This document shows, piece by piece, positions 40,760-64,000 of a stretch of 64,000 nucleotides of DNA. Numbering within the stretch: the first letter of the stretch is position 1; each line of letters starts with the position of its first letter. Position numbers and translations under genes: made by a program. Source of the DNA: Escherichia coli (GTDB lineage: Bacteria > Pseudomonadota > Gammaproteobacteria > Enterobacterales > Enterobacteriaceae); assembly GCF_044324875.1 (NCBI RefSeq), contig NZ_CP172185.1; one strand, given 5' to 3'. The notes under the pieces are model-generated. The model ran no database searches, had not been told where the DNA came from, and saw only the letters and a list, made by a program, of their open reading frames with translations.

Positions 40760-40761
40760 GC

Positions 40762-41727: not shown

Positions 41728-41729
41728 TG

Positions 41730-42209: not shown

Positions 42210-43429
42210 AAATACTGGTCTACGGCATTAACTACTCGCCGGAGTTAACCGGCACCGGCAAGTACACCGGCGAGATGGTGGAATGGCTGGCAGCACAAGG
42301 TCATGAGGTGCGGGTTATTACCGCGCCGCCTTACTACCCGCAGTGGCAGGTGGGCGAGAACTATTCCGCCTGGCGGTACAAACGGGAAGAGGGGGCCGCC
42401 ACGGTGTGGCGCTGCCCGCTGTACGTGCCAAAACAGCCGAGCACCCTGAAACGCCTGTTGCATCTCGGTAGTTTTGCCGCCAGCAGTTTCTTTCCTCTGA
42501 TGGCGCAACGTCGCTGGAAGCCGGATCGCATTATCGGCGTGGTGCCAACGCTGTTTTGCACGCCGGGAATGCGCCTGCTGGCGAAACTCTCTGGTGCGCG
42601 TACCGTGCTGCATATTCAGGATTACGAAGTGGACGCCATGCTGGGGCTGGGCCTTGCCGGAAAAGGCAAAGGCGGCAAAGTGGCACTGCTGGCGACGGCG
42701 TTCGAACGTAGCGGACTGCATAACGTCGATAACGTCTCCACGATTTCGCGCTCGATGATGAATAAAGCCATCGAAAAAGGCGTGGCGGCGGAAAACGTCA
42801 TCTTCTTCCCCAACTGGTCGGAAATTGCCCGTTTTCAGCATGTCGCAGAGGCCGATGTTGATGCCCTTCGTAACCAGCTTGGCCTGCCGGATAACAAAAA
42901 AATCATTCTTTACTCCGGCAATATTGGTGAAAAGCAGGGGCTGGAAAACGTTATTGAAGCTGCCGATCGCCTGCGTGATGAACCGCTGATTTTTGCCATT
43001 GTCGGGCAGGGCGGCGGCAAAGCGTGGCTGGAAAAAATGGCGCAGCAGCGTGGACTGCACAATATGCAATTTTTTCCGCTGCAATCGTATGACGCTTTAC
43101 CCGCACTGCTGAAGATGGGCGATTGCCATCTGGTGGTGCAAAAACGCGGCGCGGCAGATGCCGTATTACCGTCGAAACTAACCAATATTCTGGCAGTAGG
43201 CGGTAACGCGGTGATTACCGCAGAGGCCCACACAGAACTGGGGCAGCTTTGCGAAACCTTTCCGGGCATTGCGGTTTGCGTAGAACCGGAATCGGTCGAG
43301 GCGCTGGTGGCGGGGATCCGTCAGGCGCTCCTGCTGCCCAAACACAACACGGTGGCACGTGAATATGCCGAACGCACGCTCGATAAAGAGAACGTGTTAC
43401 GTCAATTTATAAATGATATTCGGGGATAA
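42206..43429 (+). CDS. wcaI: colanic acid GT4 glycosyltransferase WcaI
   Basis: 407-aa ORF; start overlaps the gmm stop; position in the cluster. Confidence 0.9.
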
Positions 43430-43431
43430 TT

Positions 43432-44868: not shown

Positions 44869-44995
<127 letters not shown>

Positions 44996-45060
44996 TAACG
45001 ACAAAAACAAAATTGGCCGTTTCGGTCAGGGCCAACTATTGCCTGAAAAAGGGTAACGAC

Positions 45061-46431
45061 ATGAAAAAATTAACCTGCTTTAAAGCCTATGATATTCGCG
45101 GGAAATTAGGCGAAGAACTGAATGAAGATATTGCCTGGCGTATTGGGCGTGCCTATGGCGAATTTCTCAAACCGAAAACCATTGTGTTAGGCGGTGATGT
45201 CCGCCTCACCAGCGAAATCTTAAAACTGGCGCTGGCAAAAGGTTTACAGGATGCGGGTGTCGATGTGCTGGATATTGGCATGTCCGGCACCGAAGAGATC
45301 TATTACGCCACGTTCCATCTCGGCGTGGATGGCGGCATCGAAGTCACTGCCAGCCATAATCCGATGGATTACAACGGCATGAAGCTGGTACGCGAAGGGG
45401 CTCGCCCGATCAGCGGCGATACCGGACTGCGCGACGTCCAGCGTCTGGCAGAAGCCAATGACTTCCCTCCTGTCGATGAAACCAAACGCGGTCGCTATCA
45501 GCAAATCAATCTGCGTGATGCTTACGTTGATCACCTGTTCGGTTATATCAACGTCAAAAACCTCACGCCGCTCAAGCTGGTGATTAACTCCGGGAACGGC
45601 GCAGCGGGTCCGGTAGTTGACGCCATTGAAGCCCGCTTTAAAGCCCTCGGCGCACCTGTGGAATTGATCAAAGTGCACAACACGCCGGACGGCAATTTCC
45701 CCAACGGTATTCCTAACCCGCTGCTGCCGGAATGCCGCGACGACACCCGCAATGAGGTCATCAAACACGGCGCGGATATGGGCATTGCCTTTGATGGCGA
45801 TTTTGACCGCTGCTTCCTGTTTGACGAAAAAGGGCAGTTTATCGAGGGCTACTACATTGTCGGCCTGCTGGCAGAAGCGTTCCTCGAAAAAAATCCTGGC
45901 GCGAAGATCATCCACGATCCACGTCTCTCCTGGAACACCGTTGATGTGGTGACTGCTGCTGGCGGCACGCCGGTAATGTCGAAAACCGGACACGCCTTTA
46001 TTAAAGAACGTATGCGCAAGGAAGACGCCATCTATGGTGGCGAAATGAGCGCTCACCATTACTTCCGCGATTTCGCTTACTGCGACAGCGGCATGATCCC
46101 GTGGCTGCTGGTCGCCGAACTGGTGTGCCTGAAAGGAAAAACGCTGGGCGAACTGGTGCGCGACCGGATGGCAGCGTTTCCGGCAAGCGGTGAGATCAAC
46201 AGCAAACTGGCGCACCCCGTTGAGGCGATTAACCGCGTCGAACAGCATTTTAGCCGCGAGGCGCTGGCGGTGGATCGCACCGATGGCATCAGCATGACCT
46301 TTGCCGACTGGCGCTTTAATCTGCGCTCCTCCAACACCGAACCGGTGGTGCGGTTGAATGTGGAATCGCGCGGTGATGTGCCGCTGATGGAAGCGCGAAC
46401 GCGAACTCTGCTGGCGTTGCTGAACGAGTAA
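45061..46431 (+). CDS. cpsG: phosphomannomutase (colanic acid copy)
   Basis: ATG at 45061 gives [29 protein letters not shown] (456 aa) with phosphohexomutase active-site Ser motif (TASHNP). The upstream extension was rejected. Confidence 0.93.
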
Positions 46432-46485
46432 TGTCGGATCTTCCCTTACCCCACTGCGGGTAAGGGGCTAATAACAGGAACAACG

Positions 46486-47880
46486 ATGACAAATCTAAAA
46501 AAGCGCGAGCGAGCGAAAACCAATGCATCGTTAATCTCTATGGTGCAACGCTTTTCAGATATCACCATCATGTTTGCCGGACTATGGCTGGTTTGCGAAG
46601 TGAGCGGCCTGTCATTCCTCTACATGCACCTGTTGGTGGCGCTGATTACGCTGGTGGTGTTCCAGATGCTGGGTGGCATCACCGATTTTTATCGCTCATG
46701 GCGAGGTGTTCGGGCAGCGACAGAATTTGCCCTGCTGCTACAAAACTGGACCTTAAGCGTGATTTTCAGCGCCGGACTGGTGGCGTTCAACAATGATTTC
46801 GACACGCAACTGAAAATCTGGCTGGCGTGGTATGGGCTGACCAGCATCGGACTGGTGGTTTGCCGTTCATGTATTCGCATTGGGGCGGGCTGGCTGCGTA
46901 ATCATGGCTATAACAAGCGTATGGTCGCCGTAGCGGGGGATTTAGCCGCCGGACAAATGCTGATGGAGAGCTTCCGTAATCAGCCGTGGTTAGGGTTTGA
47001 AGTGGTGGGCGTATACCACGACCCAAAACCGGGCGGCGTTTCTAACGACTGGGCGGGCAATCTGCAACAGCTGGTAGAGGATGCAAAAGCGGGCAAGATT
47101 CATAACGTCTATATCGCGATGCAGATGTGCGACGGCGCGCGCGTGAAAAAACTGGTCCATCAACTGGCGGACACCACCTGTTCGGTGCTGCTGATCCCCG
47201 ATGTCTTTACCTTCAACATTCTCCATTCCCGTATCGAAGAGATGAACGGCGTACCGGTGGTGCCGCTTTACGACACACCGCTTTCCGGGGTTAACCGCCT
47301 GCTCAAACGTGCGGAAGACATTGTGCTGGCGACGCTTATCCTGCTGCTGATCTCCCCGGTGCTGTGTTGCATTGCGCTGGCGGTGAAACTCAGTTCACCT
47401 GGGCCGGTTATTTTCCGCCAGACTCGCTACGGCATGGACGGCAAACCGATCAAAGTGTGGAAGTTCCGTTCCATGAAAGTGATGGAGAACGACAAAGTGG
47501 TGACTCAGGCGACGCAGAACGATCCGCGCGTCACCAAAGTGGGGAATTTTCTACGCCGCACCTCGCTGGATGAATTGCCGCAGTTTATTAATGTGCTGAC
47601 CGGGGGGATGTCGATTGTCGGTCCGCGTCCGCATGCGGTGGCGCATAACGAACAGTATCGCCAGCTCATTGAAGGCTACATGCTGCGCCATAAGGTGAAA
47701 CCGGGCATTACCGGCTGGGCGCAGATTAACGGCTGGCGCGGCGAAACCGACACGCTGGAGAAAATGGAAAAACGCGTCGAGTTCGACCTTGAGTACATCC
47801 GCGAATGGAGCGTCTGGTTCGATATCAAAATCGTTTTCCTGACGGTGTTCAAGGGCTTCGTTAACAAAGCGGCATATTGA
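46486..47880 (+). CDS. wcaJ: undecaprenyl-phosphate glucose-1-phosphate transferase WcaJ
   Basis: 464-aa ORF with N-terminal TM segments and C-terminal bacterial sugar transferase domain (SIVGPRPH). Confidence 0.93.
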   Translation: MTNLKKRERAKTNASLISMVQRFSDITIMFAGLWLVCEVSGLSFLYMHLLVALITLVVFQMLGGITDFYRSWRGVRAATEFALLLQNWTLSVIFSAGLVAFNNDFDTQLKIWLAWYGLTSIGLVVCRSCIRIGAGWLRNHGYNKRMVAVAGDLAAGQMLMESFRNQPWLGFEVVGVYHDPKPGGVSNDWAGNLQQLVEDAKAGKIHNVYIAMQMCDGARVKKLVHQLADTTCSVLLIPDVFTFNILHSRIEEMNGVPVVPLYDTPLSGVNRLLKRAEDIVLATLILLLISPVLCCIALAVKLSSPGPVIFRQTRYGMDGKPIKVWKFRSMKVMENDKVVTQATQNDPRVTKVGNFLRRTSLDELPQFINVLTGGMSIVGPRPHAVAHNEQYRQLIEGYMLRHKVKPGITGWAQINGWRGETDTLEKMEKRVEFDLEYIREWSVWFDIKIVFLTVFKGFVNKAAY

Positions 47881-47881
47881 T

Positions 47882-49360
47882 ATGAGCTTACGTGAAAAAA
47901 CCATCAGCGGCGCGAAGTGGTCGGCGATTGCCACGGTGATCATCATCGGCCTCGGGTTGGTGCAGATGACCGTGCTGGCGCGGATTATCGACAACCACCA
48001 GTTCGGCCTGCTGACTGTGTCGCTGGTGATCATCGCGCTGGCAGATACGCTTTCTGACTTCGGTATCGCTAACTCCATTATTCAGCGAAAAGAAATCAGC
48101 CACCTTGAACTCACCACGCTGTACTGGCTGAACGTTGGGCTGGGGCTTGTGGTGTGCGTGGCGGTGTTTTTGTTGAGTGATCTCATTGGTGACATGCTGA
48201 ATAACCCGGACCTGGCACCCTTGATTAAAACATTGTCGCTGGCGTTTGTGGTGATCCCCCACGGGCAACAGTTCCGCGCGTTGATGCAGAAGGAGCTGGA
48301 GTTCAACAAAATCGGCATGATCGAAACCAGCGCGGTGCTGGCGGGCTTCACTTTTACGGTGGTTAGCGCCCATTTCTGGCCGCTGGCGATGACCGCGATC
48401 CTCGGTTATCTGGTCAATAGTGCGGTAAGAACGCTGCTGTTTGGCTACTTTGGCCGCAAAATTTATCGCCCCGGTCTGCATTTCTCGCTGGCGTCGGTGG
48501 CACCGAACTTACGCTTTGGTGCCTGGCTGACGGCGGACAGCATCATCAACTATCTCAACACCAACCTTTCAACGCTGGTGCTGGCGCGTATTCTCGGCGC
48601 GAGTGTGGCAGGGGGGTACAACCTGGCGTACAACGTGGCCGTTGTGCCGCCGATGAAACTGAACCCCATCATCACCCGCGTGTTGTTTCCGGCGTTTGCC
48701 AAAATTCAGGACGACACCGAAAAGCTGCGCGTCAACTTCTACAAGCTGCTGTCGGTGGTGGGGATTATCAACTTTCCGGCGCTGCTCGGGCTGATGGTGG
48801 TGTCAAATAACTTTGTACCGCTGGTCTTTGGTGAGAAGTGGAACAGCATTATTCCGGTGCTGCAATTGCTGTGTGTGGTGGGGCTGCTGCGCTCAGTGGG
48901 GAACCCGATTGGTTCGCTGCTGATGGCGAAAGCGCGGGTCGATATCAGCTTTAAATTCAACGTATTCAAAACCTTTCTGTTTATTCCGGCGATTGTTATT
49001 GGTGGGCAGATGGCGGGCGCAATCGGCGTCACGCTTGGCTTCCTGCTGGTGCAGATTATCAACACCATTCTGAGCTATTTCGTGATGATTAAACCGGTGC
49101 TCGGTTCCAGTTATCGCCAGTACATCCTGAGTTTGTGGCTGCCGTTTTATCTCTCGCTGCCGACGCTGGTGGTTAGTTCTGCGCTGGGCATTGTGCTGAA
49201 AGGGCAACTGGCGCTGGGGATGCTGTTGGCGGTGCAAATAGCCGCGGGCGTGCTGGCGTTTGTGGTGATGATTGTGCTGTCGCGCCATTCGCTGGTGGTG
49301 GAAGTGAAGCGTCAGTTTTGTCGCAGCGAAAAAATGAAAATGCTTTTACGGGCGGGGTGA
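47882..49360 (+). CDS. wzxC: colanic acid repeat-unit flippase WzxC
   Basis: 492-aa polytopic MOP-family membrane protein; position in the cluster. Confidence 0.93.
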   Translation: MSLREKTISGAKWSAIATVIIIGLGLVQMTVLARIIDNHQFGLLTVSLVIIALADTLSDFGIANSIIQRKEISHLELTTLYWLNVGLGLVVCVAVFLLSDLIGDMLNNPDLAPLIKTLSLAFVVIPHGQQFRALMQKELEFNKIGMIETSAVLAGFTFTVVSAHFWPLAMTAILGYLVNSAVRTLLFGYFGRKIYRPGLHFSLASVAPNLRFGAWLTADSIINYLNTNLSTLVLARILGASVAGGYNLAYNVAVVPPMKLNPIITRVLFPAFAKIQDDTEKLRVNFYKLLSVVGIINFPALLGLMVVSNNFVPLVFGEKWNSIIPVLQLLCVVGLLRSVGNPIGSLLMAKARVDISFKFNVFKTFLFIPAIVIGGQMAGAIGVTLGFLLVQIINTILSYFVMIKPVLGSSYRQYILSLWLPFYLSLPTLVVSSALGIVLKGQLALGMLLAVQIAAGVLAFVVMIVLSRHSLVVEVKRQFCRSEKMKMLLRAG

Positions 49361-49387
49361 ATGGTTGTTTTCGGTTCCGACAACGGT

Positions 49388-49672
49388 TGCCGGATGCGGC
49401 GTGAACGCCTTATCCGTCCTACGGCTCTGTGCTCGGGTCTTGTAGGCCTGATAAGACGCGCCAGCGTCGCATCAGGCACTAAATGCCGGATGCGGCGTAA
49501 AACGCCTTATCCATCCTACGGTTCTGTGCTCGGGACCTGTAGGCCTGATAAGACGCGTCAGCGTCGCATCAGGCACTGAATGCTGGATGCGGCGTGAACG
49601 CCTTATCCGGCCTACGGTTCTGTGCTCGGGTCTTGTAGGCCTGATAAGACGCGCCAGCGTCGCATCAGGCAA
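49388..49672. repeat. BIME cluster: three tandem ~95-bp units of paired REP elements between wzxC and wcaK
   Basis: Three near-identical copies of gccggatgcggcgtgaacgccttatccg.cctacgg.tctgtgctcggg.cttgtaggcctgataagacgcg.cagcgtcgcatcaggca. Confidence 0.85.
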
Positions 49673-49731
49673 AAAACGGCAACGAACACAACAAACACAG
49701 CCTCACCTGGCATCAAATTTATGAGGAAAAA

Positions 49732-51012
49732 ATGAAATTACTTATTCTGGGCAACCACACTTGCGGCAATCGTGGCGACAGCGCCATCTTGCGCGGCTTA
49801 CTTGATGCCATCAACATCCTCAATCCACATGCCGAAGTGGACGTGATGAGCCGCTATCCTGTCAGTTCTTCCTGGCTGCTCAACCGCCCGGTAATGGGCG
49901 ATCCGCTGTTCCTGCAAATGAAACAACACAACAGCGCGGCGGGCGTTGTCGGGCGCGTTAAAAAAGTCCTCCGTCGCCGCTACCAGCATCAGGTATTGCT
50001 CTCACGCGTCACCGACACTGGCAAGCTGCGTAATATCGCCATCGCCCAGGGATTCACTGACTTCGTGCGCCTGCTGTCAGGTTACGACGCCATTATTCAG
50101 GTCGGCGGATCGTTTTTTGTCGATCTCTACGGCGTGCCGCAGTTTGAACATGCGCTTTGCACATTTATGGCGAAAAAGCCGCTGTTTATGATTGGTCACA
50201 GCGTCGGCCCCTTCCAGGATGAGCAATTTAACCAACTGGCGAACTACGTTTTCGGTCACTGTGACGCGCTGATCCTGCGCGAGTCGGTTAGCCTCGATCT
50301 AATGAAACGCAGCAATATCACCACTGCAAAAGTGGAACATGGCGTCGATACCGCGTGGCTGGTCGATCACCACACAGAAGATTTCACCGCCAGCTATGCC
50401 GTCCAACACTGGCTGGACGTTGCCGCACAACAGAAAACGGTAGCAATTACCTTGCGCGAACTGGTACCGTTCGACAAACGTCTCGGCACCACTCAACAAG
50501 CGTATGAAAAAGCCTTTGCCGGGGTGGTCAATCGCATTCTCGACGAAGGATATCAGGTGATTGCGCTCTCCACCTGTACGGGTATCGACAGCTATAACAA
50601 AGACGACCGCATGGTGGCGCTCAATCTGCGCCAGCATATCAGCGATCCTGCCCGTTACCACGTAGTGATGGATGAACTCAACGATCTGGAAATGGGCAAA
50701 ATTCTCGGTGCCTGTGAACTCACCGTCGGTACGCGCCTGCACTCCGCCATTATCTCAATGAACTTTGCCACTCCGGCGATTGCCATCAACTATGAACATA
50801 AATCCGCCGGGATTATGCAACAGCTGGGACTGCCAGAGATGGCGATTGATATCCGTCATTTACTGGACGGCAGCCTGCAAGCGATGGTTGCGGATACCTT
50901 AGGCCAACTTCCGGCGCTGAACGCACGACTTAACGAAGCTGTCAGTCGTGAGCGTCAGACAGGAATGCAGATGGTGCAATCTGTGCTTGAGCGCATCGGG
51001 GAGGTGAAATGA
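49732..51012 (+). CDS. wcaK: colanic acid pyruvyl transferase WcaK
   Basis: 426-aa ORF beginning MKLLILGNHTCGNRGDSAIL; position in the cluster. Confidence 0.92.
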   Translation: MKLLILGNHTCGNRGDSAILRGLLDAINILNPHAEVDVMSRYPVSSSWLLNRPVMGDPLFLQMKQHNSAAGVVGRVKKVLRRRYQHQVLLSRVTDTGKLRNIAIAQGFTDFVRLLSGYDAIIQVGGSFFVDLYGVPQFEHALCTFMAKKPLFMIGHSVGPFQDEQFNQLANYVFGHCDALILRESVSLDLMKRSNITTAKVEHGVDTAWLVDHHTEDFTASYAVQHWLDVAAQQKTVAITLRELVPFDKRLGTTQQAYEKAFAGVVNRILDEGYQVIALSTCTGIDSYNKDDRMVALNLRQHISDPARYHVVMDELNDLEMGKILGACELTVGTRLHSAIISMNFATPAIAINYEHKSAGIMQQLGLPEMAIDIRHLLDGSLQAMVADTLGQLPALNARLNEAVSRERQTGMQMVQSVLERIGEVK

Positions 51013-52229
51013 AGGTCGGCTTCTTTTTACTGAAATTTCCGCTGTCGTCGGAAACCTTCGTCCTCAATCAAATTACCGCGTTTATTGATATGGGCTTTGA
51101 AGTGGAGATTGTCGCGCTGCAAAAAGGTGACACACAAAACACCCACGCGGCATGGACGAAATACAACCTTGCCGCAAGAACCCGCTGGTTACAGGACGAA
51201 CCTACGGGCAAAGTGGCGAAGCTGCGCCACCGTGCCAGCCAGACCTTACGCGGCATTTATCGTAAAAATACCTGGCAGGCGCTCAACCTCAAACGCTATG
51301 GTGCCGAGTCGCGGAACCTGATTTTGTCTGCCATTTGCGGCCAGGTCGCAACACCGTTTCATGCCGATGTCTTTATCGCTCATTTTGGTCCGGCAGGGGT
51401 AACCGCAGCAAAACTACGCGAACTGGGTGTCATTCGCGGCAAAATTGCCACTATCTTCCACGGCATTGATATCTCCAGTCGGGAAGTGCTCAACCACTAC
51501 ACTCCCGAATATCAGCAACTGTTCCGCCGTGGCGACCTGATGTTACCGATAAGCGATCTGTGGGCCGGAAGGCTGCAAAAAATGGGCTGTCCGAGGGAAA
51601 AAATCGCCGTATCGCGTATGGGCGTGGACATGACGCGCTTTAGCCCGCGCCCGGTGAAAGCGCCCGCAACGCCGCTGGAAATCATTTCCGTCGCACGCTT
51701 AACCGAGAAAAAAGGCCTGCATGTGGCGATTGAAGCCTGCCGTCAGTTGAAAGAGCAGGGCGTGGCATTTCGCTATCGCATCCTCGGCATTGGCCCGTGG
51801 GAACGACGCCTGCGCACCCTCATCGAACAATATCAACTGGAAGATGTGGTGGAGATGCCGGGCTTTAAACCGAGCCATGAAGTGAAAGCGATGCTCGACG
51901 ACGCGGATATCTTCCTGTTGCCATCGGTAACGGGCGCGGATGGCGATATGGAAGGCATTCCGGTCGCGCTGATGGAAGCGATGGCGGTCGGCATTCCGGT
52001 GGTTTCTACTCTGCATAGCGGAATACCGGAACTGGTCGAGGCCGATAAATCCGGCTGGCTGGTGCCTGAGAACGATGCTCGCGCACTGGCGCAACGACTG
52101 GCGGCGTTTAGCCAACTGGACACCGACGAACTGGCTCCGGTCGTCAAACGAGCGCGCGAAAAAGTCGAACACGATTTTAACCAGCAGGTGATTAATCGAG
52201 AACTCGCCAGCTTGCTGCAAGCTTTATAG
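51009..52229 (+). CDS. wcaL: colanic acid GT4 glycosyltransferase WcaL
   Basis: 406-aa ORF; overlaps the wcaK stop; GT4 EX7E-type region. Confidence 0.92.
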
Positions 52230-52239
52230 AGGAGAACGT

Positions 52240-53634
52240 ATGCCATTTAAAAAACTCTCCCGACGCACCTTCCTGACGGCAAGCTCCGCGCTTGCCTTCC
52301 TCCATACCCCTTTCGCTCGCGCACTTCCCGACCAACAGAGCGTTAACATTAACGACTACAACCCTCACGACTGGATCGCCTCATTTAAACAAGCCTTCAG
52401 CGAAGGACAAACAGTCGTCGTGCCTGCCGGATTCGTTTGTGACAATATCAACACCGGCATCTTCATCCCTCCCGGCAAAACGTTACACATCCTTGGAAGC
52501 CTGCGCGGCAACGGCAGAGGGCGATTTGTCTTACAGGACGGCAGCCAGGTGACAGGGGAGGAGGGCGGCAGTATGCATAACATCACCCTGGATGTGCGTG
52601 GTTCTGACTGCACCATCAAAGGGCTGGCGATGAGCGGTTTCGGCCCGGTAACGCAGATTTATATCGGCGGCAAAAACAAACGGGTTATGCGTAACCTGAC
52701 CATCGATAACCTGACCATTAGCCACGCTAATTACGCCATCTTACGTCAGGGATTTCATAACCAGATTATCGGTGCCAACATCACCAATTGTAAGTTCAGC
52801 GACTTACAGGGGGACGCCATTGAATGGAACGTGGCGATTAACGACAGTGATATTTTGATCTCCGACCACATCATCGAGCGCATCAACTGTACCAACGGCA
52901 AAATCAACTGGGGAATCGGCATAGGCCTTGCGGGGAGTACTTATGATAATAACTACCCGGAAGACCAGGCAGTGAAAAACTTTGTCGTGGCGAATATCAC
53001 GGGATCGGATTGTCGACAACTGATCCATGTTGAAAATGGTAAACATTTTGTTATTCGTAATATCAAAGCCCGCAATATCACGCCGGATTTCAGTAAGAAA
53101 GCAGGTATTGATAACGCCACGGTCGCTATTTACGGTTGTGACAATTTCGTGATTGATAATATTGAAATGATTAATAGCGCCGGGATGTTAATCGGTTATG
53201 GGGTAATTAAAGGCAAATATCTCTCGATACCGCAAAATTTCCGAGTGAATAATATTCAGCTGGATAACACCCACCTTGCTTACAAATTGCGCGGTATCCA
53301 AATCTCTGCCGGGAATGCTGTCTCCTTTGTGGCACTGACTAACATTGAGATGAAGCGTGCCTCGTTGGAGTTACACAACAAACCGCAACATCTTTTTATA
53401 CGAAATATCAAAGTGATGCAGGAATCCTCTGTTGGACCCGCATTGAGCATGAACTTCGACATGCGCAAAGACGTTCGCGGCGTCTTTATGGCGAAAAAAG
53501 AAACACTGCTGTCTCTTGCAAATGTTCATGCGGTGAATGAAAGAGGGCAAAGCTCCGTCGATATCGACAGGGTTAATCACCATATTGTTAATGTGGAAAA
53601 GATTAACTTTAGATTGCCAGAACGGAGAGAGTAG
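52240..53634 (+). CDS. wcaM: colanic acid biosynthesis protein WcaM (secreted, beta-helix-like)
   Basis: 464-aa ORF with Tat/Sec-like N-terminus [21 protein letters not shown]; position in the cluster. Confidence 0.9.
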
Positions 53635-53808
53635 ATTTGCGACCATTCCTGGAAAAATGGAGCCATACTTAGGAACAATGCTACTGCAATCCACAACGAA
53701 GCGGCGTAACATCACAAGTAATTCAGTAATCAATTCAGGGTAATTGATGCTGGCGAAAAAAATCGAACAAGCTATAATTCAGCAACCATTTTACAGGTGG
53801 ATGAAATA

Positions 53809-54702
53809 ATGACGAATTTAAAAGCAGTTATTCCTGTAGCGGGTCTTGGGATGCATATGTTGCCTGCCACTAAGGCGATTCCCAAAGAGATGCTACCGAT
53901 CGTCGACAAGCCAATGATTCAGTACATTGTTGACGAGATTGTGGCTGCAGGGATCAAAGAAATCCTCCTGGTAACTCACGCGTCCAAGAACGCGGTCGAA
54001 AACCACTTCGACACCTCTTATGAATTAGAATCTCTCCTTGAACAGCGCGTGAAGCGTCAACTACTGGCGGAAGTGCAGTCCATCTGTCCGCCGGGCGTGA
54101 CCATTATGAACGTGCGTCAGGGCGAACCTTTAGGTTTGGGCCACTCCATTTTATGTGCACGACCTGCCATTGGTGACAACCCATTTGTCGTGGTACTGCC
54201 AGACGTTGTTATCGATGACGCCAGCGCCGATCCGCTACGCTATAACCTTGCTGCCATGATTGCGCGCTTCAACGAAACGGGCCGCAGCCAGGTGCTGGCA
54301 AAACGTATGCCGGGTGACCTCTCTGAATACTCCGTCATTCAGACCAAAGAACCACTGGATCGTGAAGGTAAAGTCAGCCGCATCGTCGAATTTATCGAAA
54401 AACCGGATCAGCCGCAGACGCTGGACTCAGACATCATGGCCGTTGGTCGCTATGTGCTTTCTGCCGATATTTGGCCGGAACTTGAACGCACGCAACCTGG
54501 TGCATGGGGGCGTATTCAGCTGACTGATGCTATTGCCGAACTGGCGAAAAAACAGTCCGTTGATGCCATGCTGATGACCGGCGACAGCTACGACTGCGGT
54601 AAAAAAATGGGCTATATGCAGGCGTTTGTGAAGTATGGACTGCGCAACCTGAAGGAAGGGCCAAAGTTCCGTAAGAGCATTGAGAAGTTGCTCGGGGAAT
54701 AG
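53809..54702 (+). CDS. galF: UTP-glucose-1-phosphate uridylyltransferase regulatory subunit GalF
   Basis: ATG at 53809 gives [39 protein letters not shown] (297 aa). The upstream GTG extension was rejected. Confidence 0.95.
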
Positions 54703-54962
54703 ATCCCAAGCCAATGTAACAATAATTTAGATAAATAGCGGCAGCTAACATCCCGGCGTCTATGCTTTAAACAAAGGAATGTTACTGTCGTTTTTCTTTT
54801 TAAAACAAAGAATAACAACGAGTTAACCTACTAAGTTTAATCTATTTTTTGTTGGATTTATCCTTGTTTCTGACAGCATTTGGTAAGACAATTGGCGTTT
54901 GAATTTAAGATAGCTTTGCGATAGCTAGCGGGGCGGGGTACATCTTTGGCATTTTGCTAGTG

Positions 54963-54996
54963 CACTGGTAGCTGTTAAGCCAGGGGCGGTAGCGTG
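54963..54996 (+). promoter_or_regulatory. JUMPstart element with ops site upstream of the O-antigen gene cluster
   Basis: cactggtagctgttaagccaggggcggtagcgtg contains the ops core GGCGGTAGCGTG (54985..54996), in the galF to O-antigen intergenic region. Confidence 0.85.
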
Positions 54997-55095
54997 GTAA
55001 GATTGTGTTTATATGATGCGTTCTCAAAATAAGAAATAATAATCCTGACTATTTTTATACTATTGATAATATCTGAAATAAACTTAAGAGCAAAC

Positions 55096-56100
55096 ATGAA
55101 AGTAATTGTAAATAATTTTTTTGATGGTATTTTGAAAAGAGGAATACCGATCTATACTTCTGAACTTGTGCAAAAGTTAAGAGACAATAATGTTCAGGTT
55201 ATTTATGTTGCATGTCCAAAAGCATTCCATAAGCTGCCTTCATGGTTTCTGAATGTTCTTTTTATAATAGTAGAGCAGCTTTTAATACCAATTATGGGTA
55301 TATTTTATAGAACTAAGTATAATATATATCCCTATAATAGTAGTTCCATCATTGACTTGTTATTAGGTAAGGCAATTGTTATAATTCATGACTTCATTAG
55401 TCTTAAGAAAAATAAACGAAATCTTGCTGCCATTTATGTGAAAGTCTGTATTTATTTTTCATCTTTTTTAGCAAAGAAAGTAATATTTATTTCTCAAAGC
55501 ACTCAGCGAGTATCTAAGAGAATATCGCTATTTAAGTGTATAGAATCTATCCTGCTCCCAAATCCATTTTTCTCATTTGAGAAAATTGCTAATGTTACCG
55601 AAATAAAAGATCTTGGATATTTACTTCTAGTTTCAGGTTTAGGGGATAATAAGGATCTAGGCACAGCTCTGGACTATTATTTTTCAATCCCAAGGGAAGA
55701 AAGAATACCATTAAAAATATTAGGTTGTGGGAATGGTATTAGCAAGGTTAACGACTTAATTGATGGGCGGGATACAGATAAAGAAATTGAAATTATTGGT
55801 TTTGTTTCTTTAGAGGAAGTCGTCAAACTATATTGTAATTCTAAAATTGTTTGGGCTCATTCGCTTGCCGAGGGGTATGGAAGGACTTTAGCTGAAGCAA
55901 AACTCACATGCAAAAATGTTATATGCACACGGATCTCTGCTTTCCGCGAACAAAAGGATTCGAATATTTTCTTTTATACTTACTATTCTGAGTATTATGA
56001 AGTCTATTCATACTTGGTAGATAATTCACCCAGTGTCGAAAGGAAAGCTCTGCATGAACATATTTTATTTGAAAATGAATTGAGAAAGATTTATGAGTAA
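55096..56100 (+). CDS. O-antigen glycosyltransferase, probable GT4 family
   Basis: ATG at 55096 (MKVIVNNFFDG..., preceded by TAAGAG) chosen over the ORF-track start at 55063. EX7E-like region AHSLAEGYGRTLAEA. Very AT-rich codon usage. Confidence 0.75.
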   Translation: MKVIVNNFFDGILKRGIPIYTSELVQKLRDNNVQVIYVACPKAFHKLPSWFLNVLFIIVEQLLIPIMGIFYRTKYNIYPYNSSSIIDLLLGKAIVIIHDFISLKKNKRNLAAIYVKVCIYFSSFLAKKVIFISQSTQRVSKRISLFKCIESILLPNPFFSFEKIANVTEIKDLGYLLLVSGLGDNKDLGTALDYYFSIPREERIPLKILGCGNGISKVNDLIDGRDTDKEIEIIGFVSLEEVVKLYCNSKIVWAHSLAEGYGRTLAEAKLTCKNVICTRISAFREQKDSNIFFYTYYSEYYEVYSYLVDNSPSVERKALHEHILFENELRKIYE

Positions 56101-57295
56101 TATTGATATAAATAAGAAACAGATATTAGTTTTGACTCCACGGTTCCCGTTTCCTGTCATTGGTGGGGATCGATTACGTATCTATAAGATCTGTAAAGAA
56201 CTGTCTAAGCATTATGATCTTACGTTGCTGAGTCTGTGTGATAAACGCGAAGAGCTCAACTATGAATATGATCGTGAAGTTTTTAGTAGTGTTCACAGAG
56301 TATATCTTTCAAAGAAAAAATCTATTTTAAATGTCATATTCTCTTTGTTTTCAAATACTCCCCTACAGATTGGGTATTATAAATCTAAAGAATTTGAAGA
56401 TAAACTTAAGCAGTTATTACCTGAACATTCTGCAACTCTTTCACATTTGATAAGGGTTGGTGATTATGTGAAAGAGAATAAAGATATAAATTTTTTAGAG
56501 ATGACCGATGCCATTTCACTTAATTATAAACGAGTAAAGGAAAAAGCATCTTTATTGAGTTTAAAAACATTTGTATATTCTTTTGAACAAAAAAGACTCG
56601 AACGATATGAGCGAACTATAAATAACAAGTTCAGCTTGACTACTTTGGTATCACAGGTTGACTCCGATTATTTATATCCAGACCGTCCGAATAATGTATT
56701 AGTCTGTGGAAATGGTGTTGATGCCGTTAGCTTACCTTTTTCAGAACGAAAAATAGCTAAAGATAAAAAGATAACCCTTGTATTTATAGGTAATTTATAT
56801 TCTTTGCAAAATATGGATGGTGTGAGATGGTTCACCAAGGAAGTTTTACCATTTCTTAACAAGCATGGTAATTTTGAATTTAAGGTCATCGGACGTATTA
56901 CAGATAAAGATAAGAGTTGGTTAGAAAGCCAGCCTGGCGTTGTTGTCACAGGTGAAGTTGATAGCATAACTTATGCAGCAGCTGATGGGCATATTGGTGT
57001 ATGTCCTATTAGATTAGGGGCAGGTATCCAAAATAAGGTACTTGAATATATGGCGTTGGGATTACCTTGTATCTCTTCTACTGTAGGCTTTGAAGGCTTG
57101 GGAGCAGAGGAGGGTAAGGAGATTTATGTTGCCAATACAAAAGAAGAATATTTACGTGTATTAAATTATTTTATAACAAATCTGGATAAATATACCGAAA
57201 CAGCATTAGTTGCGAAAAAGTTTATCGGTGAGAATTTTTCATGGGAAGCTAAATTGAGCCCATATATCCAGAAAATTAAGGAGTCTGTTAAATAA
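56093..57295 (+). CDS. O-antigen glycosyltransferase, GT4 family
   Basis: 400-aa ORF; start overlaps the previous gene. GT4 C-terminal region ([33 protein letters not shown]). Confidence 0.8.
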
Positions 57296-57296
57296 A

Positions 57297-58712
57297 ATGA
57301 TTATCCCAATTATTATGGCCGGTGGTTCTGGTACTCGCTTATGGCCTCTTTCGCGTTCGTTATACCCGAAACAATTTTTATCATTGATTAATGAAAATAG
57401 TTTGCTCCAGGAAACGTTGAAGAGACTTGATGGATTAAATTGTTTGCCTCCTGTCATTGTTAGCAATAATGAGCATAGATTTATTGTTGCTGAACAATTG
57501 CGACAGTTCGGTGTGGATGACTTCCAGATTATTCTAGAACCTGTAGGTAGAAATACTGCGCCCGCCGTTGCGCTGGCTGCTCTAAAGTCTCTAGAACTCC
57601 ATGGCGATCATCATATGCTGGTTCTTGCTGCTGACCATGCTATTCAGGATATTGAAGCCTTCCATGCAGCTGTTTTAGCTGCAGAACAAGAGTCCGTTGA
57701 CAATAAGTTAGTGACTTTTGGCATCGTCCCGACCAAACCTGAAACTGGGTATGGCTATATTAAAAAGGGCGAACAAGTTAAAAACTCTGTATTTAAAGTA
57801 AATTCTTTCGTCGAAAAACCTGATTTAGAAACGGCTAAAAATTATCTCGAACAAAAATGCTATTTGTGGAATAGTGGTATGTTCATGTTCAAGGCGAGCG
57901 TATATTTAGATGAATTGAAAAAATTTCGCCCTGATATTTTAGCAGCGTGTAAAGAGTCGCTTTCCAGTGCTAGTACTGATCTAGATTTTATCAGATTAAA
58001 TTCTGATGTCTTTGCAGAATGTCCCGATGAGTCAATTGATTATGCGGTAATGGAAAAAACTCAGGATTGTGTAGTTATTCCACTTGATGCTGACTGGAGT
58101 GACATCGGTTCATGGACATCACTTTGGGAAATATCAGAGAAAGATGAACATGAAAACGTATCGCATGGCGATGTAATTAACTATAACAGCAGGAACAACT
58201 ACATTTACTCTGAAGGTTCACTGATCAGCACTGTAGGAGTTAATAACCTTATTATAGTTCAAACTAAAGATGCGCTCCTGGTAGCACAGCAAGACAACGT
58301 ACAAGACATAAAGAAGATTGTCGAAATTCTTAAAAAGCAAAAACGTAGCGAACATATATCCCATCGCGAAGTCTATCGTCCTTGGGGACGTTATGATTCT
58401 GTAGAACGTGGCGACCGTTATCAGGTAAAGCGTATTACCGTTAAGCCTGGTGAATGTCTCTCAACACAAATGCATCATCATCGAGCTGAGCATTGGGTGG
58501 TTGTCGCTGGTACTGCAAAGGTGACTTGCGGCGAACGCACTTTTTTCGTCACTGAAAATGAGTCAACTTTCATACCAATTGGCACAGTTCATACCTTGGA
58601 AAATCCAGGAAAGATACCATTAGAAGTAATTGAGATTCAGTCGGGTGTATATCTAGGTGATGATGATATTGTGCGCCTAAGTGATAAATATGGTCGTGTT
58701 GAGGATAAATAA
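57297..58712 (+). CDS. manC: mannose-1-phosphate guanylyltransferase (O-antigen copy)
   Basis: 471-aa ORF; N-terminus [28 protein letters not shown] and C-terminal cupin nearly identical in motif to cpsB, but in AT-rich codon usage. Confidence 0.9.
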
Positions 58713-58716
58713 TTAT

Positions 58717-60138
58717 ATGAATATTACCAATGATGTAATTAAAAATAGCGGAATTGCATTTGGTACAAGTGGTGCTCGTGGATTAGTGAAAGATTTTACA
58801 CCCAACGTGTGTGCTGCATTCACTTATGCTTTTATCGATGTAATGATGAAGGATTTTTCTTTTAAAGAGGTTGCGCTCGCAATAGATAATCGCCCAAGCA
58901 GCTATGCTATGGCACAAGCTTGCGCAGCAGCATTGTTGGAATGTAGTATTAAACCTATTTACTACGGTGTAATTCCAACTCCAGCTTTGGCAAATCAAGC
59001 GATTGCCGATGGGATTCCTGCAATAATGGTTACTGGAAGTCATATTCCATTTGATAGAAATGGTTTGAAATTCTATCGTCCAGACGGGGAAATTTCAAAA
59101 GAAAATGAGAACAGCATTATACATGCTGAAAAAGAGTATCCTGATGTAACTGTATTGCCAGAATTACAATGTTCAAAGCGTGCCGCTGATACTTATATCG
59201 AGAGAAACACTTCAATTTTTTCAAATATATTTAAAGGTAAACGTATCGGGATTTATGAACATTCAAGTGCGGGACGGGATCTTTATTCAGAAATATTCAG
59301 TAAGCTTGGTGCTGAAGTTGTAAGTATTGGTAGAAGTGATGAGTTTGTGCCTATTGATACTGAAGCAGTATCAAAAGAAGATGAAGAAAAAGCTTTACAC
59401 TGGTCATCTGAGTATGACCTCGATATGATTTTTTCTACCGATGGTGATGGCGATCGTCCTTTGGTTGCTGACGAAAATGGCGTTTGGTTACGGGGTGATA
59501 TATTAGGACTATTTTGCTCAAAGGCAATGAATATTGAAGCGGTAGCTGTACCTGTAAGTTGTAATACGGTTATTCAGACTTGCGGGTGGTTTAATCATGT
59601 AACGCTGACTAAAATTGGTTCACCATACGTCATTTCAGCGTTTGATTCTCTGAATAATAGTTTTGATAGGGTTGCAGGGTTTGAGGCTAACGGTGGGTAT
59701 CTTTTAGGTAGCGATGTAAATTATAACAGCGGTATGATTAAAGCGCTTCCAACAAGAGATGCTGTTTTGCCTGCTTTAATGGTACTGGCACTGGCTATAA
59801 AAAATAATGTGACTATTTCAAAACTCTTGGCGGAGTTGCCACCACGATTTACCTACTCAAATAGAGTTCAAAATTTTGCAACAAGCAAAAGTAAAAGCAT
59901 TATCGCGTCAGCTCAAGAAAATCCTCAAGAATTTATCGAAAGAATAGGCTTTGTCGATCTTCATGTACAATCGGTGGATACAATTGACGGGTTAAGATTG
60001 ACACTAAGTGATGGTTCAATAATCCATTTGCGACCGTCAGGCAACGCACCTGAATTGCGATGCTATGCAGAAGCAGATAACATAATAAAAGCTGAAAAAT
60101 TAGTGTTAGAAGTTTTGCATAAAGTTACTCTTTTGTAA
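58717..60138 (+). CDS. manB: phosphomannomutase-type phosphohexomutase (O-antigen copy)
   Basis: ATG at 58717 gives [29 protein letters not shown]...; active-site region [17 protein letters not shown]. The ORF-track start at 58681 is a GTG inside manC. Gene symbol assigned by function and cluster context, not by match to a specific known locus. Confidence 0.8.
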
Positions 60139-60321
60139 AAAAATATAAACTTTTTTCTACTCTTGAGCGGTTTGTCATTTAACCGCTCAGTAATAGATTG
60201 TTTATAAATTGTTTATATTTAGCATTGGTGTTTTTATTTGCGTTCATCCCGAATAAGAGATTGTAAAATTAACTGTTTCTTATTTTTCAAATGAGTTACT
60301 TCACTAGTAAAGCTAATTACT

Positions 60322-61653
60322 ATGCATAAGCAATATTATTCATTATTGTGCAATAAAATACAGTTTAAACATCTGGCTATATATTTTTCTGTATTTCTTT
60401 CACTATCCTCATGTTTCTTGTGGGGAGGGGCGGATACATTTGTATCGCAAGTGTATATTGATATTTTAGCCACTATATCTACAGCGCTATTAGTTGTTTT
60501 GATGTTCTATTATTATATTAATAGAGTTCGCTATTTATCACTAACCTTACTTTTTGCATTCGTTTTTTCTTTGATTATTGGTTTGCCATCGATTTATCTT
60601 TACTATTTTAAAAACGCAAATCATGGGTTTGAAATAATTTGTATCTGGGGGATGTTGATCAATTCCATCCTTTACTTGCAAACAACAGAGACTGTCATAA
60701 AAGAAGAAAAAAGATATTTAACTAGTTTATTTTATATTTTGTTTTCTATTGTTGCACTGTGTCAATTATACAAAATATTAATTTATCTTATGTTTATATT
60801 GAATTCAGGAGAAGGGCATTTAGCAATTTATACTGAAAGCGAAGAATTGCTATCCCAAGTTCCATTTTTTATTCGTGCTATTAGTGGTTTTGCAGTTGTA
60901 ATGTCATTGTCCACTTTTTATTTTAAAACACCGACCTACATTAAAGTTATTGCATTTGTTTTACTTGCATCTGATTTAGCTATTGGAATACGTAATAAGT
61001 TTTTCTTTTCAGTGATTTGTATTTTTATACTATATATGTACTCTAATGAGTATAGAGTAAGAAATTTATTTAAGCAACTCTCAAAACCAATATTTCTCAT
61101 CGCCGGTTTTTTATGCTTCTCGATGGTATCGTATTTCCGTGAAGGGTACCAAATCGATTTTATGATTTATATTGGCATTGTTTTAGATTCGCTATCCTCT
61201 ACTCTTGGGGGGATGCAGAATTTGTTTGATATGCAATCATCAGGATGGGATCAACTTCATCCCGCTGTGGTATTCACACAAGTATTACCGCTAAGCGGTC
61301 TTGGTTTTCTTGATGATCAACAAATCGCAAAAGATTTTTCAATAATTGTTTTAGGTGATGTATCCTCTGGTATTGCGTTGTCATCTTCAGGATTGTTAGA
61401 GTCATCGTTGCTGAGTCTAAACTTGGGAGTGATTATTTATTTACTGTATTTATCAGGGGTGATGCTTTTTATTAAATGGGGACTAAATAATCAACGGATA
61501 ATAATAAACTTTGTTGCCATCTCCATGATATCTGGATTTTTTTATGCTGTTCGTGGTGAACTGATTTTGCCATTGGCTTTTCTTCTAAAATCATTGCCGA
61601 TTGTTCTTATATCTCCATTACTTGTTAAAAATAAAATTTATCATGGTCAGTAA
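60322..61653 (+). CDS. wzy: probable O-antigen polymerase (Wzy-type polytopic membrane protein)
   Basis: 443-aa strongly hydrophobic, very AT-rich ORF with about 10-12 predicted TM segments and no MOP-family N-terminal motif. Assigned by exclusion and cluster context. Confidence 0.6.
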   Translation: MHKQYYSLLCNKIQFKHLAIYFSVFLSLSSCFLWGGADTFVSQVYIDILATISTALLVVLMFYYYINRVRYLSLTLLFAFVFSLIIGLPSIYLYYFKNANHGFEIICIWGMLINSILYLQTTETVIKEEKRYLTSLFYILFSIVALCQLYKILIYLMFILNSGEGHLAIYTESEELLSQVPFFIRAISGFAVVMSLSTFYFKTPTYIKVIAFVLLASDLAIGIRNKFFFSVICIFILYMYSNEYRVRNLFKQLSKPIFLIAGFLCFSMVSYFREGYQIDFMIYIGIVLDSLSSTLGGMQNLFDMQSSGWDQLHPAVVFTQVLPLSGLGFLDDQQIAKDFSIIVLGDVSSGIALSSSGLLESSLLSLNLGVIIYLLYLSGVMLFIKWGLNNQRIIINFVAISMISGFFYAVRGELILPLAFLLKSLPIVLISPLLVKNKIYHGQ

Positions 61654-61694
61654 GTGGTTTATTTTTCGACCAGGATCTCACCAGTAGGCATGAC

Positions 61695-62930
61695 ATGATC
61701 AAAGAAATTTTCTCCGATGGCATTTTTTCGCTATTTAATAAAATATGTTACTTCGGTTTTAAAACACTTGCAATAATTCTGATTACTCGTTCCTTAGGAG
61801 AAGATGTAGGCGGAGAGTTCATTTTTTTAGTTGGTTTTCTCGAAGTCCTTCGGGTGGTTACTGATTTTGGTGTGGATCTGTTTGTTATAAAAAAATATAA
61901 TGATTCTACAGATAAAATAAAACTATTAAATGTAACGTTTGCACAAAAAATTCTTTCTGGAGTAATTGTTTTACTACTGTTTTGTTTGTATTCTTTTGTT
62001 CAGGGTTATCAATATAATGTCTATATTCCTATTGTGTTAGCCTTACCTGTTGCTTTATTTTTTAATTTCTCAAATAGCTATTTTCAATCTCTCAATTCCA
62101 ATAAATCTCTCACGTTTCCGATCGCAATTGCATCTATTGCAACGTGTACGATCTTCGCTATTCAGTATTTTTTAAACGTTAAATTTAACGCATGGGATTA
62201 CCTGTGTGTTGAACTATTATTCGTATCGCTGGTTACACTAAAACTATTCGTTAGTGTCAAGTTTAGGTTTATTAGAACGTCAGCTTTTGATGTGCTAATG
62301 TCAATTCTTTCTTTATATAAATATACATTAAGTATAGGTCTTACAGCTGTTGTTGTAATTATTTATAGCCGTATAGATAATTTTTATCTCAAGACATTTG
62401 CCCCAGGGGATCTTGCAGCATATGGCCAGATATTTAGGATGGTTGATCCACTGGTTATGGTTTCTTCTGTATTTTCTACAGTTGCCTATGCAAGATTTTG
62501 CCGAATTAACTTACAAGAAAAAAATGCTTTTACTAAGGTGTTTCAGTTCCTGTTATGTATTGTGGCATATGGCGTGCTGAGTTCATTAGTTTATTTCTTT
62601 ATAATAAAATACCTGGGTCATTTTGTATTGATTTCTAATGTTAATAATGATTTCTTGATAATGATGTTCTTGATTGTTGCATGTGTGAAATGTATCAATG
62701 GTGGTACAACTGCAATAATTCAGTCACAGGGGTTTTATAAAGTGGGTTTGTATGTTTCGTATGTTTGCATTTTGACATCGATACCAACTATGTATTTCTT
62801 AATAATGAAGTACGGTGTTAAAGGTGCTGCTATGACGATTCTGCTTGTAGAGTGTATTAGTTTCATATTACTTCTCTGCAGCTTTTTTATGATAAAAAAG
62901 ATGCGTCCTAAAAAAACATTCGAAATGTAA
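61695..62930 (+). CDS. wzx: probable O-antigen flippase (Wzx, MOP family)
   Basis: 411-aa polytopic membrane ORF with N-terminal FNKICYFGFKTLAIILITRSLGEDVGGEF resembling the Wzx/polysaccharide-biosynthesis-protein N-terminal motif. Confidence 0.65.
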   Translation: MIKEIFSDGIFSLFNKICYFGFKTLAIILITRSLGEDVGGEFIFLVGFLEVLRVVTDFGVDLFVIKKYNDSTDKIKLLNVTFAQKILSGVIVLLLFCLYSFVQGYQYNVYIPIVLALPVALFFNFSNSYFQSLNSNKSLTFPIAIASIATCTIFAIQYFLNVKFNAWDYLCVELLFVSLVTLKLFVSVKFRFIRTSAFDVLMSILSLYKYTLSIGLTAVVVIIYSRIDNFYLKTFAPGDLAAYGQIFRMVDPLVMVSSVFSTVAYARFCRINLQEKNAFTKVFQFLLCIVAYGVLSSLVYFFIIKYLGHFVLISNVNNDFLIMMFLIVACVKCINGGTTAIIQSQGFYKVGLYVSYVCILTSIPTMYFLIMKYGVKGAAMTILLVECISFILLLCSFFMIKKMRPKKTFEM

Positions 62931-63082
62931 TCAATGAGTCCTCTTTGAATAGAATTAGTTTGTTCTATTTATGAACACTTAGCTTGAGTAAGTTCTAACA
63001 TAGATTACTAATTGTTTGATACTATCTGCTTTACAAGCATAACCGCGTATGTCGCGGTGACCACACCTGACAGGAGTATGTA

Positions 63083-64000
63083 ATGTCCAAGCAACAGATC
63101 GGCGTCGTCGGTATGGCAGTGATGGGGCGCAACCTGGCGCTCAACATCGAAAGCCGTGGTTATACCGTCTCCGTCTTCAACCGCTCCCGCGAAAAAACTG
63201 AAGAAGTTGTTGCCGAGAACCCGGGTAAGAAACTGGTTCCTTATTACACGGTGAAAGAGTTTGTCGAGTCTCTTGAAACCCCTCGTCGCATCCTGTTAAT
63301 GGTGAAAGCAGGTGCAGGCACGGATGCTGCTATTGATTCCCTCAAACCATATCTCGATAAAGGTGACATCATCATTGATGGTGGTAACACCTTCTTCCAG
63401 GACACTATTCGTCGTAATCGTGAGCTTTCAGCAGAGGGCTTTAACTTCATCGGTACCGGTGTTTCCGGCGGTGAAGAGGGGGCGTTGAAAGGACCTTCCA
63501 TCATGCCTGGTGGGCAGAAAGAAGCCTATGAACTGGTTGCACCAATTCTGACCAAAATCGCCGCAGTAGCTGAAGACGGTGAGCCATGCGTTACCTATAT
63601 TGGTGCCGATGGCGCAGGTCACTATGTGAAGATGGTTCACAACGGTATTGAATACGGCGATATGCAGCTGATTGCTGAAGCCTATTCTCTGCTAAAAGGT
63701 GGCCTGAACCTCACCAACGAAGAACTGGCGCAGACTTTTACCGAGTGGAATAACGGTGAACTGAGCAGCTACCTGATCGACATCACCAAAGATATCTTCA
63801 CCAAAAAAGATGAAGACGGTAACTACCTGGTTGATGTGATTCTGGATGAAGCAGCAAACAAAGGTACGGGCAAATGGACCAGCCAGAGTGCGCTGGATCT
63901 CGGCGAACCGCTGTCGCTGATAACCGAGTCTGTGTTTGCACGTTATATCTCTTCTCTGAAAGATCAGCGCGTTGCCGCGTCTAAAGTTCTCTCTGGCCCG
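63083..64000 (+). CDS. gnd: 6-phosphogluconate dehydrogenase (decarboxylating), 5' part (gene runs off the window end)
   Basis: CAGGAG SD then ATG at 63083 gives [35 protein letters not shown]..., the classical Gnd N-terminus with Rossmann motif. No stop before the window end. Confidence 0.95.

Follow-up and report, generated by a model that had tools for sequence, protein, structure and literature searches.

The AT-rich block between galF and gnd in this E. coli genome raises the question of which O antigen it specifies, and whether the repeat unit of that antigen is a new one. In the window, meaning the whole 64,000-nucleotide stretch that was analyzed, the block occupies positions 54703-63082 and its bounds are exact: 54702 is the last base of galF (53809..54702, + strand) and 63083 the first of gnd. 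The composition profile gives a GC content of 0.27-0.41 inside the block, in contrast to 0.50-0.55 in the flanks, and GC3 per gene is 0.26-0.32 in the six cluster genes vs. 0.53-0.62 in wcaL, wcaM, galF, and gnd. The conserved upstream flank, galF, scores 685.8 bits against TIGR01105 (cut-off 659), in agreement with its RefSeq annotation, and the downstream flank, the 5′ part of gnd (63083..64000, + strand) that is cut by the window end, scores 516 bits against NF006765. The six co-oriented genes, all on the + strand, encode two glycosyltransferases (GT1 and GT2), ManC, ManB, Wzy, and Wzx, in that order. Neither the open reading frames (ORFs) nor the family profiles gave any sign of rml genes, wzm/wzt, or an initiating transferase between galF and gnd, and this interval is also free of IS elements and frameshifts, with all six ORFs intact. 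The original prediction of an AT-rich six-gene block between galF and gnd is therefore borne out by the coordinates, GC, and GC3, and its statement that rml genes are absent holds for the interval. Two starts in the ORF list (TTG 55063 and GTG 58681) yield longer genes than the corresponding RefSeq starts (ATG 55096 and ATG 58717).

The genes lie downstream of a JUMPstart element (54958..54996, + strand), which scores 59.2 bits with Rfam model RF01707 (gathering score 35) and contains the ops motif GGCGGTAG at 54985-54992. The exact sequence GGCGGTAGCGTG occurs twice in the window, in the cluster leader and upstream of wza, against a chance expectation of 0. JUMPstart/ops would make the operon leader a site of antitermination by RfaH. 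Consensus scans for promoters and terminators across 54600-63300 returned hits at chance level (37 sites vs. 34.6 expected, and 6 vs. 5.4), and we claim no internal promoter or terminator.

Comparison of the block with that of the O17 reference strain K12a found 8379 of 8380 bases identical, the sole mismatch being at position 59892. The annotated regions of K12a and of strain GN25 have the identical layout GT-GT-manC-manB-wzy-wzx between galF and gnd, and at least 80% of the cluster query is covered in 92 of 5426 complete E. coli genomes. Each of the six proteins exactly matches a sequence found on at least 1000 public contigs. For two of them, the RefSeq names are 'O17/O44/O73/O77/O106 family' polymerase and flippase, and it is on the wzx and wzy alleles that molecular O-typing relies. 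The threshold given in the literature for the O77 group is >99% nucleotide identity over the whole cluster (Liu et al. 2020, PMC7685785). The group comprising O17, O44, O73, O77, and O106 corresponds to Gp9 (Iguchi et al. 2015, PMC4379981), and the name 'O77g' is in use for it (PMC13188871, PMC13248637). Judged by these sequence matches, the O77-group O-antigen cluster of E. coli is almost certainly present in intact form at positions 54703-63082, and no result speaks against this. Compared to K12a, the six genes, their order, and their locus are the same, their proteins are identical, and only the flanks differ. The original prediction had left the serogroup unassigned, but near-identity to K12a and the RefSeq names place the locus in the O17/O44/O73/O77/O106 group, a characterized group with a known structure and this same gene order. 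The cluster is thus already known and well characterized, and the copy described here is an ordinary one. It is included in every O-typing database, and is said to have been sequenced and tied to a solved structure in 2007, by Wang and co-workers in Microbiology.

The six proteins were examined for their parts in building such an antigen. ManC (57297..58712, + strand), a bifunctional mannose-1-phosphate guanylyltransferase/mannose-6-phosphate isomerase, scores 754.6 bits against TIGR01479 (cut-off 373) and shares 60% identity with its colanic-acid paralog CpsB, encoded in the same window. ManB (58717..60138, + strand), which RefSeq names phosphomannomutase, contains all four PGM_PMM domains. 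It reaches no NCBIfam equivalog cut-off and is only 24% identical to CpsG, from which its sequence indicates a distinct lineage, and its specificity for mannose is inferred from context. The TIGR01479 score and the four PGM_PMM domains agree with the earlier identification of manC and manB.

Wzy (60322..61653, + strand) is an exact match to the O17/O44/O73/O77/O106 polymerase (WP_000549530/Q1L812) and has at least eight hydrophobic segments. Because no profile match rises above threshold, with 30.4 bits for TIGR04370 (cut-off 40) and no Pfam match, its identification depends solely on that exact match. Wzx (61695..62930, + strand) is an exact match to the O17/O44/O73/O77/O106 flippase (WP_000588762/Q1L817), with at least ten hydrophobic segments and a match to Pfam Polysacc_synt (4.9e-7). 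No ABC-transporter ORF was found in the interval. With wzx and wzy present and wzm/wzt absent, the locus is of the Wzx/Wzy type, as had been proposed. The position of wzx as the last gene, which the original prediction regarded as unusual, carries no meaning. Although wzx adjoined gnd in none of 10 sampled genomes, representing nine distinct clusters, the last gene varied in nearly all of them, so that there is no canonical last gene from which this cluster could depart. The order with wzx last is the same in every O77-group member and in Citrobacter.

The published backbone of the O77 group is ->6)-a-Man-(1->2)-a-Man-(1->2)-b-Man-(1->3)-a-GlcNAc-(1-> (Liu et al. 2020, PMC7685785). This Man3-GlcNAc repeat, together with manC/manB, wzx, and wzy, confirms that the cluster is mannose-based, and its beginning with GlcNAc is consistent with the WecA-initiated HexNAc that had been predicted. 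The predicted trisaccharide gives way to a tetrasaccharide. Two glycosyltransferase genes would naively add up to three sugars, a count that could be read as a new or unassigned cluster with a novel mannose-rich trisaccharide repeat, as the original prediction implied. However, the cluster is nearly identical to that of a typed reference strain and is present in 92 complete genomes, and the backbone has four sugars, with one O77-group glycosyltransferase proposed to transfer two mannoses (reported second-hand in Liu et al. 2020, PMC7685785). We therefore give the idea of a novel trisaccharide practically no credence, and retain the O77-group assignment.

Which member of the O77 group the strain represents depends on genes outside the cluster. 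The five serogroups differ only in glucose side branches, which are added by gtr genes located elsewhere and, for O44, carried on prophage (PMC7685785). In the gene content of the 64-kb window, from yegQ to gnd, there are no gtr genes. With these genes elsewhere and none in the window, the group can be assigned but the individual serogroup cannot. There is a slim chance that the strain carries an undescribed gtr variant, giving a sixth serological form.

Both glycosyltransferases are predicted O-unit mannosyltransferases. GT1 (55096..56100, + strand; 334 aa) is identical to the E. coli protein Q1L822/WP_000864846 and matches Pfam Glycos_transf_1 (PF00534) at 1.9e-10. It has two N-terminal hydrophobic segments and, in its C-terminal GT-B 'group 1' domain, the EX7E motif EGYGRTLAE at residues 259-267. 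GT2 (56093..57295, + strand; 400 aa), whose gene shares 8 nt with that of GT1, is identical to Q1L815/WP_000065081, is annotated as family 4, and matches Pfam Glyco_trans_1_4 (PF13692) at 9.9e-19, with a TIGR03087-like score of 209 bits that falls under the cut-off. Inspection of the GT2 translation by eye shows AGIQNKVLE at the place equivalent to the EX7E motif of GT1, and the sole C-terminal EX7E of GT2 is found at residue 343 and is not part of the nucleotide-binding motif. The proposal of two GT4 enzymes is accordingly upheld in part: both proteins have GT-B 'group 1' domains, but only GT2 is annotated as family 4.

With three mannoses and two glycosyltransferases in the cluster, one enzyme is expected to act twice, and with one of the three linkages being β, one of the two may depart from the usual retaining GT4 type. 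Our literature search found no biochemical evidence on which enzyme adds two mannoses or on how the β-mannosyl bond forms, and PDB sequence searches with both proteins gave no significant match even at E up to 10 and thus no help on stereochemistry. The canonical EX7E motif of GT1 and its first place in the operon lead us to suggest, tentatively and with low confidence, that GT1 makes the two α1,2 bonds and GT2 the β1,3 bond. The roles could be reversed, with GT2 making both α1,2-mannosyl bonds and GT1 the β1,3 bond to GlcNAc, and we consider this a serious contender with a somewhat less than even chance of being correct. RefSeq gives family 4, which is normally retaining, to GT2 only, the group-1 domain match is stronger in GT2 (9.9e-19), and the N-terminal hydrophobic segments of GT1 might suit action on membrane-proximal Und-PP-GlcNAc. 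In contrast, it is GT1 and not GT2 that has the canonical EX7E in its group-1 domain. The tendency of genes to lie in reverse order of function also favors GT1 acting last, although it applies in only 39% of clusters (PMC7685785). Our tentative preference therefore stays with GT1 for the α1,2 bonds and GT2 for the β1,3 bond.

In the proposed pathway, the six genes would be transcribed as a single operon from the leader next to galF, where, from what is known of such pathways, JUMPstart/ops would recruit RfaH and so keep transcription going across the AT-rich genes. GDP-mannose would come from ManB and ManC, and WecA, encoded elsewhere, would be expected to provide Und-PP-GlcNAc, as in the general pathway. 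The two glycosyltransferases would then add three mannoses to yield Man-α1,2-Man-α1,2-Man-β1,3-GlcNAc-PP-Und. Wzx would flip this O-unit, and Wzy, again by analogy with the known pathway, would link units through a GlcNAc-α1,6-Man bond. WzzB and WaaL, both encoded outside the window, would control how long the chains grow and attach them to lipid A-core, respectively, and gtr glucosylation genes carried elsewhere would set the serogroup among the five. Defects outside the window, for example in wecA, waaL, or rfaH, could leave the strain rough or displaying another antigen, and nothing inside the window informs on those genes. We consider this improbable, however, with six intact ORFs identical to the commonest alleles, an intact JUMPstart, and an interval without IS elements or frameshifts.

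The flanks have a history of their own. Upstream of ~52142, the colanic-acid genes differ from those of K12a by 2-4%, and the cluster flanks are mosaic, with a breakpoint in wcaL. On the other side, the first 518 nt of gnd show at least 99% identity in only 91 genomes and 90-95% identity in 4440, and on these sequence comparisons the gnd allele travels with the O-antigen cluster. A cryptic Escherichia clade was considered as host, as positions 1-25000 of the window have no match above 98.0% in the 5426 genomes. It was rejected because XJ6.1 and GN25, both ordinary E. coli, are just as far apart over the same segments (97.5% and 98.9%).

Related systems are found in other species. The galF-gnd interval of Citrobacter portucalensis GCA_023910405.1 holds the six genes in this order too, with 97.5-98.3% nucleotide identity per gene, whereas its flanks are at genus-level divergence (80% identity for galF, 73% for wcaL and wcaM, and 89% for gnd). 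This copy might be the trace of a recent exchange between genera that is still under way, which we regard as a long shot. In a different species, Salmonella enterica, the O:6,14 (serogroup H) antigen is reported to share the four-sugar backbone of the O77 group (DebRoy et al. 2016, PMC4732683, citing Wang et al. 2007). The polymannose antigens of E. coli O8/O9/O9a are also mannose-based and need manC/manB, and their mannosyltransferases transfer more than a single mannose (Liu et al. 2020, PMC7685785). However, they are ABC-transporter (wzm/wzt) homopolymers made by the multi-domain WbdA, unlike the Wzx/Wzy system with single-domain glycosyltransferases described here.

The cluster illustrates an already known limit of genoserotyping, in that one cluster serves five serogroups separated only by gtr genes located elsewhere. 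The finding brings little new biology, and its value is in placing the source strain in O77g, a group to which the ExPEC ST69 lineage belongs, as does the stx2d-positive O77g:H18 strain behind the 2025 HUS outbreak in France (PMC13188871, PMC13248637).

The interval between galF and gnd (window 54703-63082) holds an O-antigen cluster that is real, intact, and correctly delimited, and whose sequence, structure, and typing are already known. It starts 1 base past the galF stop (54702) and ends 1 base before the gnd start (63083). GC content is 0.27-0.41 within the interval and 0.50-0.55 in the flanks, while third-position GC is 0.26-0.32 in the six cluster genes and 0.53-0.62 in wcaL, wcaM, galF, and gnd. 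On the plus strand lie the glycosyltransferase (GT) genes GT1 (55096-56100) and GT2 (56093-57295, overlapping GT1 by 8 nt), followed by manC (57297-58712), manB (58717-60138), wzy (60322-61653), and wzx (61695-62930), with gaps from galF to gnd of 393 nt (the leader), 183 nt, 41 nt, and 152 nt. The leader contains a JUMPstart element (54958-54996; Rfam, 59.2 bits) that includes an ops motif (54985-54992). The AT-rich six-gene block is therefore as originally predicted in coordinates, composition, and gene set. The expected Wzx/Wzy-type pathway is borne out by the presence of wzx and wzy and the absence of wzm/wzt, and the interval also lacks rml genes, as predicted, and an initiating transferase.

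A megablast search of 5426 complete E. coli genomes with the 8380-base query found 92 with coverage of at least 80%, the top matches listed all having 100% coverage and 100.0% (rounded) identity. Base-by-base comparison with K12a, the O17:H18 reference strain, gave a single mismatch at 59892, and all six proteins are identical to proteins on at least 1000 public contigs. RefSeq-annotated relatives carry these six genes in this order, the last two named 'O17/O44/O73/O77/O106 family O-antigen polymerase' and 'flippase'. The clusters of these five serogroups are >99% identical and encode the backbone ->6)-D-Manp-(a1->2)-D-Manp-(a1->2)-D-Manp-(b1->3)-D-GlcpNAc-(a1-> (Liu et al, 2020, PMC7685785), a four-sugar backbone that the O77 group shares with Salmonella O:6,14 (DebRoy et al, 2016, PMC4732683). 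The group, Gp9, is found in phylogroups A, B1, and E/D (Iguchi et al, 2015, PMC4379981); the name 'O77g' is in recent use, with O77g:H18 ST69 linked to a 2025 HUS outbreak (PMC13188871, PMC13248637). The cluster, to which the original prediction could not assign a serogroup, thus belongs to a known group of five, with a known structure and this same gene order. O77 has the bare backbone, while O17, O44, O73, and O106 bear glucose side branches, for which gtr genes outside the cluster were proposed and, for O44, confirmed on a prophage (PMC7685785). No gtr genes lie in the 64-kb window, which begins at yegQ and continues through baeSR, mdtABCD, ibs/sib, yegI, dgcE, asmA, and the colanic-acid genes as far as gnd; the group can therefore be assigned but not a single serogroup.

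The published structure agrees with the predicted HexNAc at the start of the repeat unit, which is GlcNAc, but not with the predicted trisaccharide. That prediction failed because one glycosyltransferase is proposed to be used twice: O77g is listed among the clusters in which one enzyme transfers two mannose residues (PMC7685785). The terminal position of wzx, thought to be unusual, carries no weight, as no particular gene is standard in last place and gene order does not vary within O77g. Ten genomes, with nine distinct clusters between them, were sampled across the gnd alleles; the gene adjoining gnd was for an acyltransferase, one of various GTs, ManB, a WbuC-type protein, or Wzy, or was a pseudogene, and was wzx in none.

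Profile searches upheld the mannose precursor genes, with manC scoring far over the equivalog cut-off and manB matching four PGM/PMM domains. Wzx matches Polysacc_synt, and both GTs match group-1 GT-B families. Wzy has only a sub-threshold match, as is usual for polymerases, and at least eight hydrophobic segments. In a protein collection at 90% identity, Wzx (411 aa) and Wzy (443 aa) were grouped in cluster 5 (P0047, P0048, P0049), whose representative P0049 (426 aa) is a Wzx whose C-terminal tail is altered. The co-grouping appears to be an artefact of the clustering and not of biological origin. The window contains two GDP-mannose gene pairs, at 43432-46431 and 57297-60138, and an algC RNA motif (RF02929) lies upstream of cpsG at 45007-45056. 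Identity is 60% between ManC and CpsB but only 24% between ManB and CpsG, and the best-scoring models for ManB are of the GlmM type, placing the O-antigen ManB in a phosphohexomutase lineage other than the colanic-acid one.

Combining these sequence features with chemistry from the literature, and with the roles of WecA, RfaH, and WzzB from standard pathway knowledge, RfaH would sustain operon transcription at ops, ManB and ManC would supply GDP-mannose, and WecA, encoded elsewhere, would supply Und-PP-GlcNAc. The two GTs would add three mannoses, one b1,3-linked and two a1,2-linked, after which Wzx would flip the O-unit, Wzy would make the GlcNAc-a1,6-Man bond between units, and WzzB, whose gene lies directly downstream of ugd in relatives, would complete the LPS with WaaL. 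A canonical EX7E motif, typical of retaining mannosyltransferases, is present in GT1 (EGYGRTLAE, residues 259-267). Because of this motif, the position of GT1 as first gene of the operon, and the tendency of GT genes to be ordered in reverse of their function (39% of clusters only; PMC7685785), we lean slightly towards GT1 forming both a1,2 bonds and GT2 the b1,3 bond. Sequence searches of both GTs against the PDB gave no help on these roles.

At the other end of the window (1-25000, yegQ-dgcE), none of the 5426 complete genomes is >98.0% identical, and only three among the matches listed give full coverage, the others breaking at the yegQ-yegP gap. A cryptic clade was considered as the source of this divergence and rejected: two ordinary E. 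coli strains differ equally there, so the region supports no taxonomic conclusion. The yegQ-yegP gap holds a two-gene accessory insert encoding a hypothetical protein (201 aa; 696-1301, plus strand) and a HEAT-repeat protein (466 aa; 1332-2732, minus strand), the sole match for the pair being a weak PADLOC 'HEAT-ARM_XIII' hit (1.8e-7) to the larger protein. The insert is fully covered in only three genomes among the matches listed and is absent from the O77g strain GN25. Between mdtA and yegL, three tandem Sib antitoxin RNAs with Ibs type I toxin partners occupy 14613-15418 on the minus strand (Rfam RF00113, 139-150 bits); ibs copy number varies, with four annotated in GN25 and three in the ordinary strain XJ6.1.

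Judged by alignment with K12a and GN25, the flanks are a recombination mosaic around an invariant cluster. Relative to K12a, there are 94 mismatches in 49513-52142 and 4 in 52143-64000, a drop that indicates a recombination junction within wcaL (51009-52229). Identity to GN25 is ~100% over 34000-48000, 95-97% over 48000-55000, and ~100% again over the cluster (55000-63000). The wzxC-wcaK intergenic region (49388-49612) contains two naRNA4/REP-type elements (RF02564), repeats that account for the ~30 megablast placements per genome, and is ~96 nt longer than in K12a, equivalent to one extra REP copy. The first 518 nt of gnd (63083-63600) have a match in 5361 genomes; identity reaches at least 99% in only 91 of these, about the number with the cluster (92), and is 90-95% in 4440. 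This rarity suggests that the gnd allele travels with the cluster, in what looks like hitch-hiking. The flank pattern is the familiar one of O-antigen locus movement by homologous recombination in the flanks. These six genes, in unchanged order, also lie between galF and gnd in Citrobacter portucalensis (GCA_023910405.1, contig JAIOGV010000004.1; locus L016, 10001-17835). They are each 97.5-98.3% identical to those of the window at the nucleotide level, whereas galF (80%), wcaL and wcaM (73%), and gnd (89%) show genus-level divergence, which suggests that the O-antigen locus has been exchanged between Escherichia and Citrobacter relatively recently.
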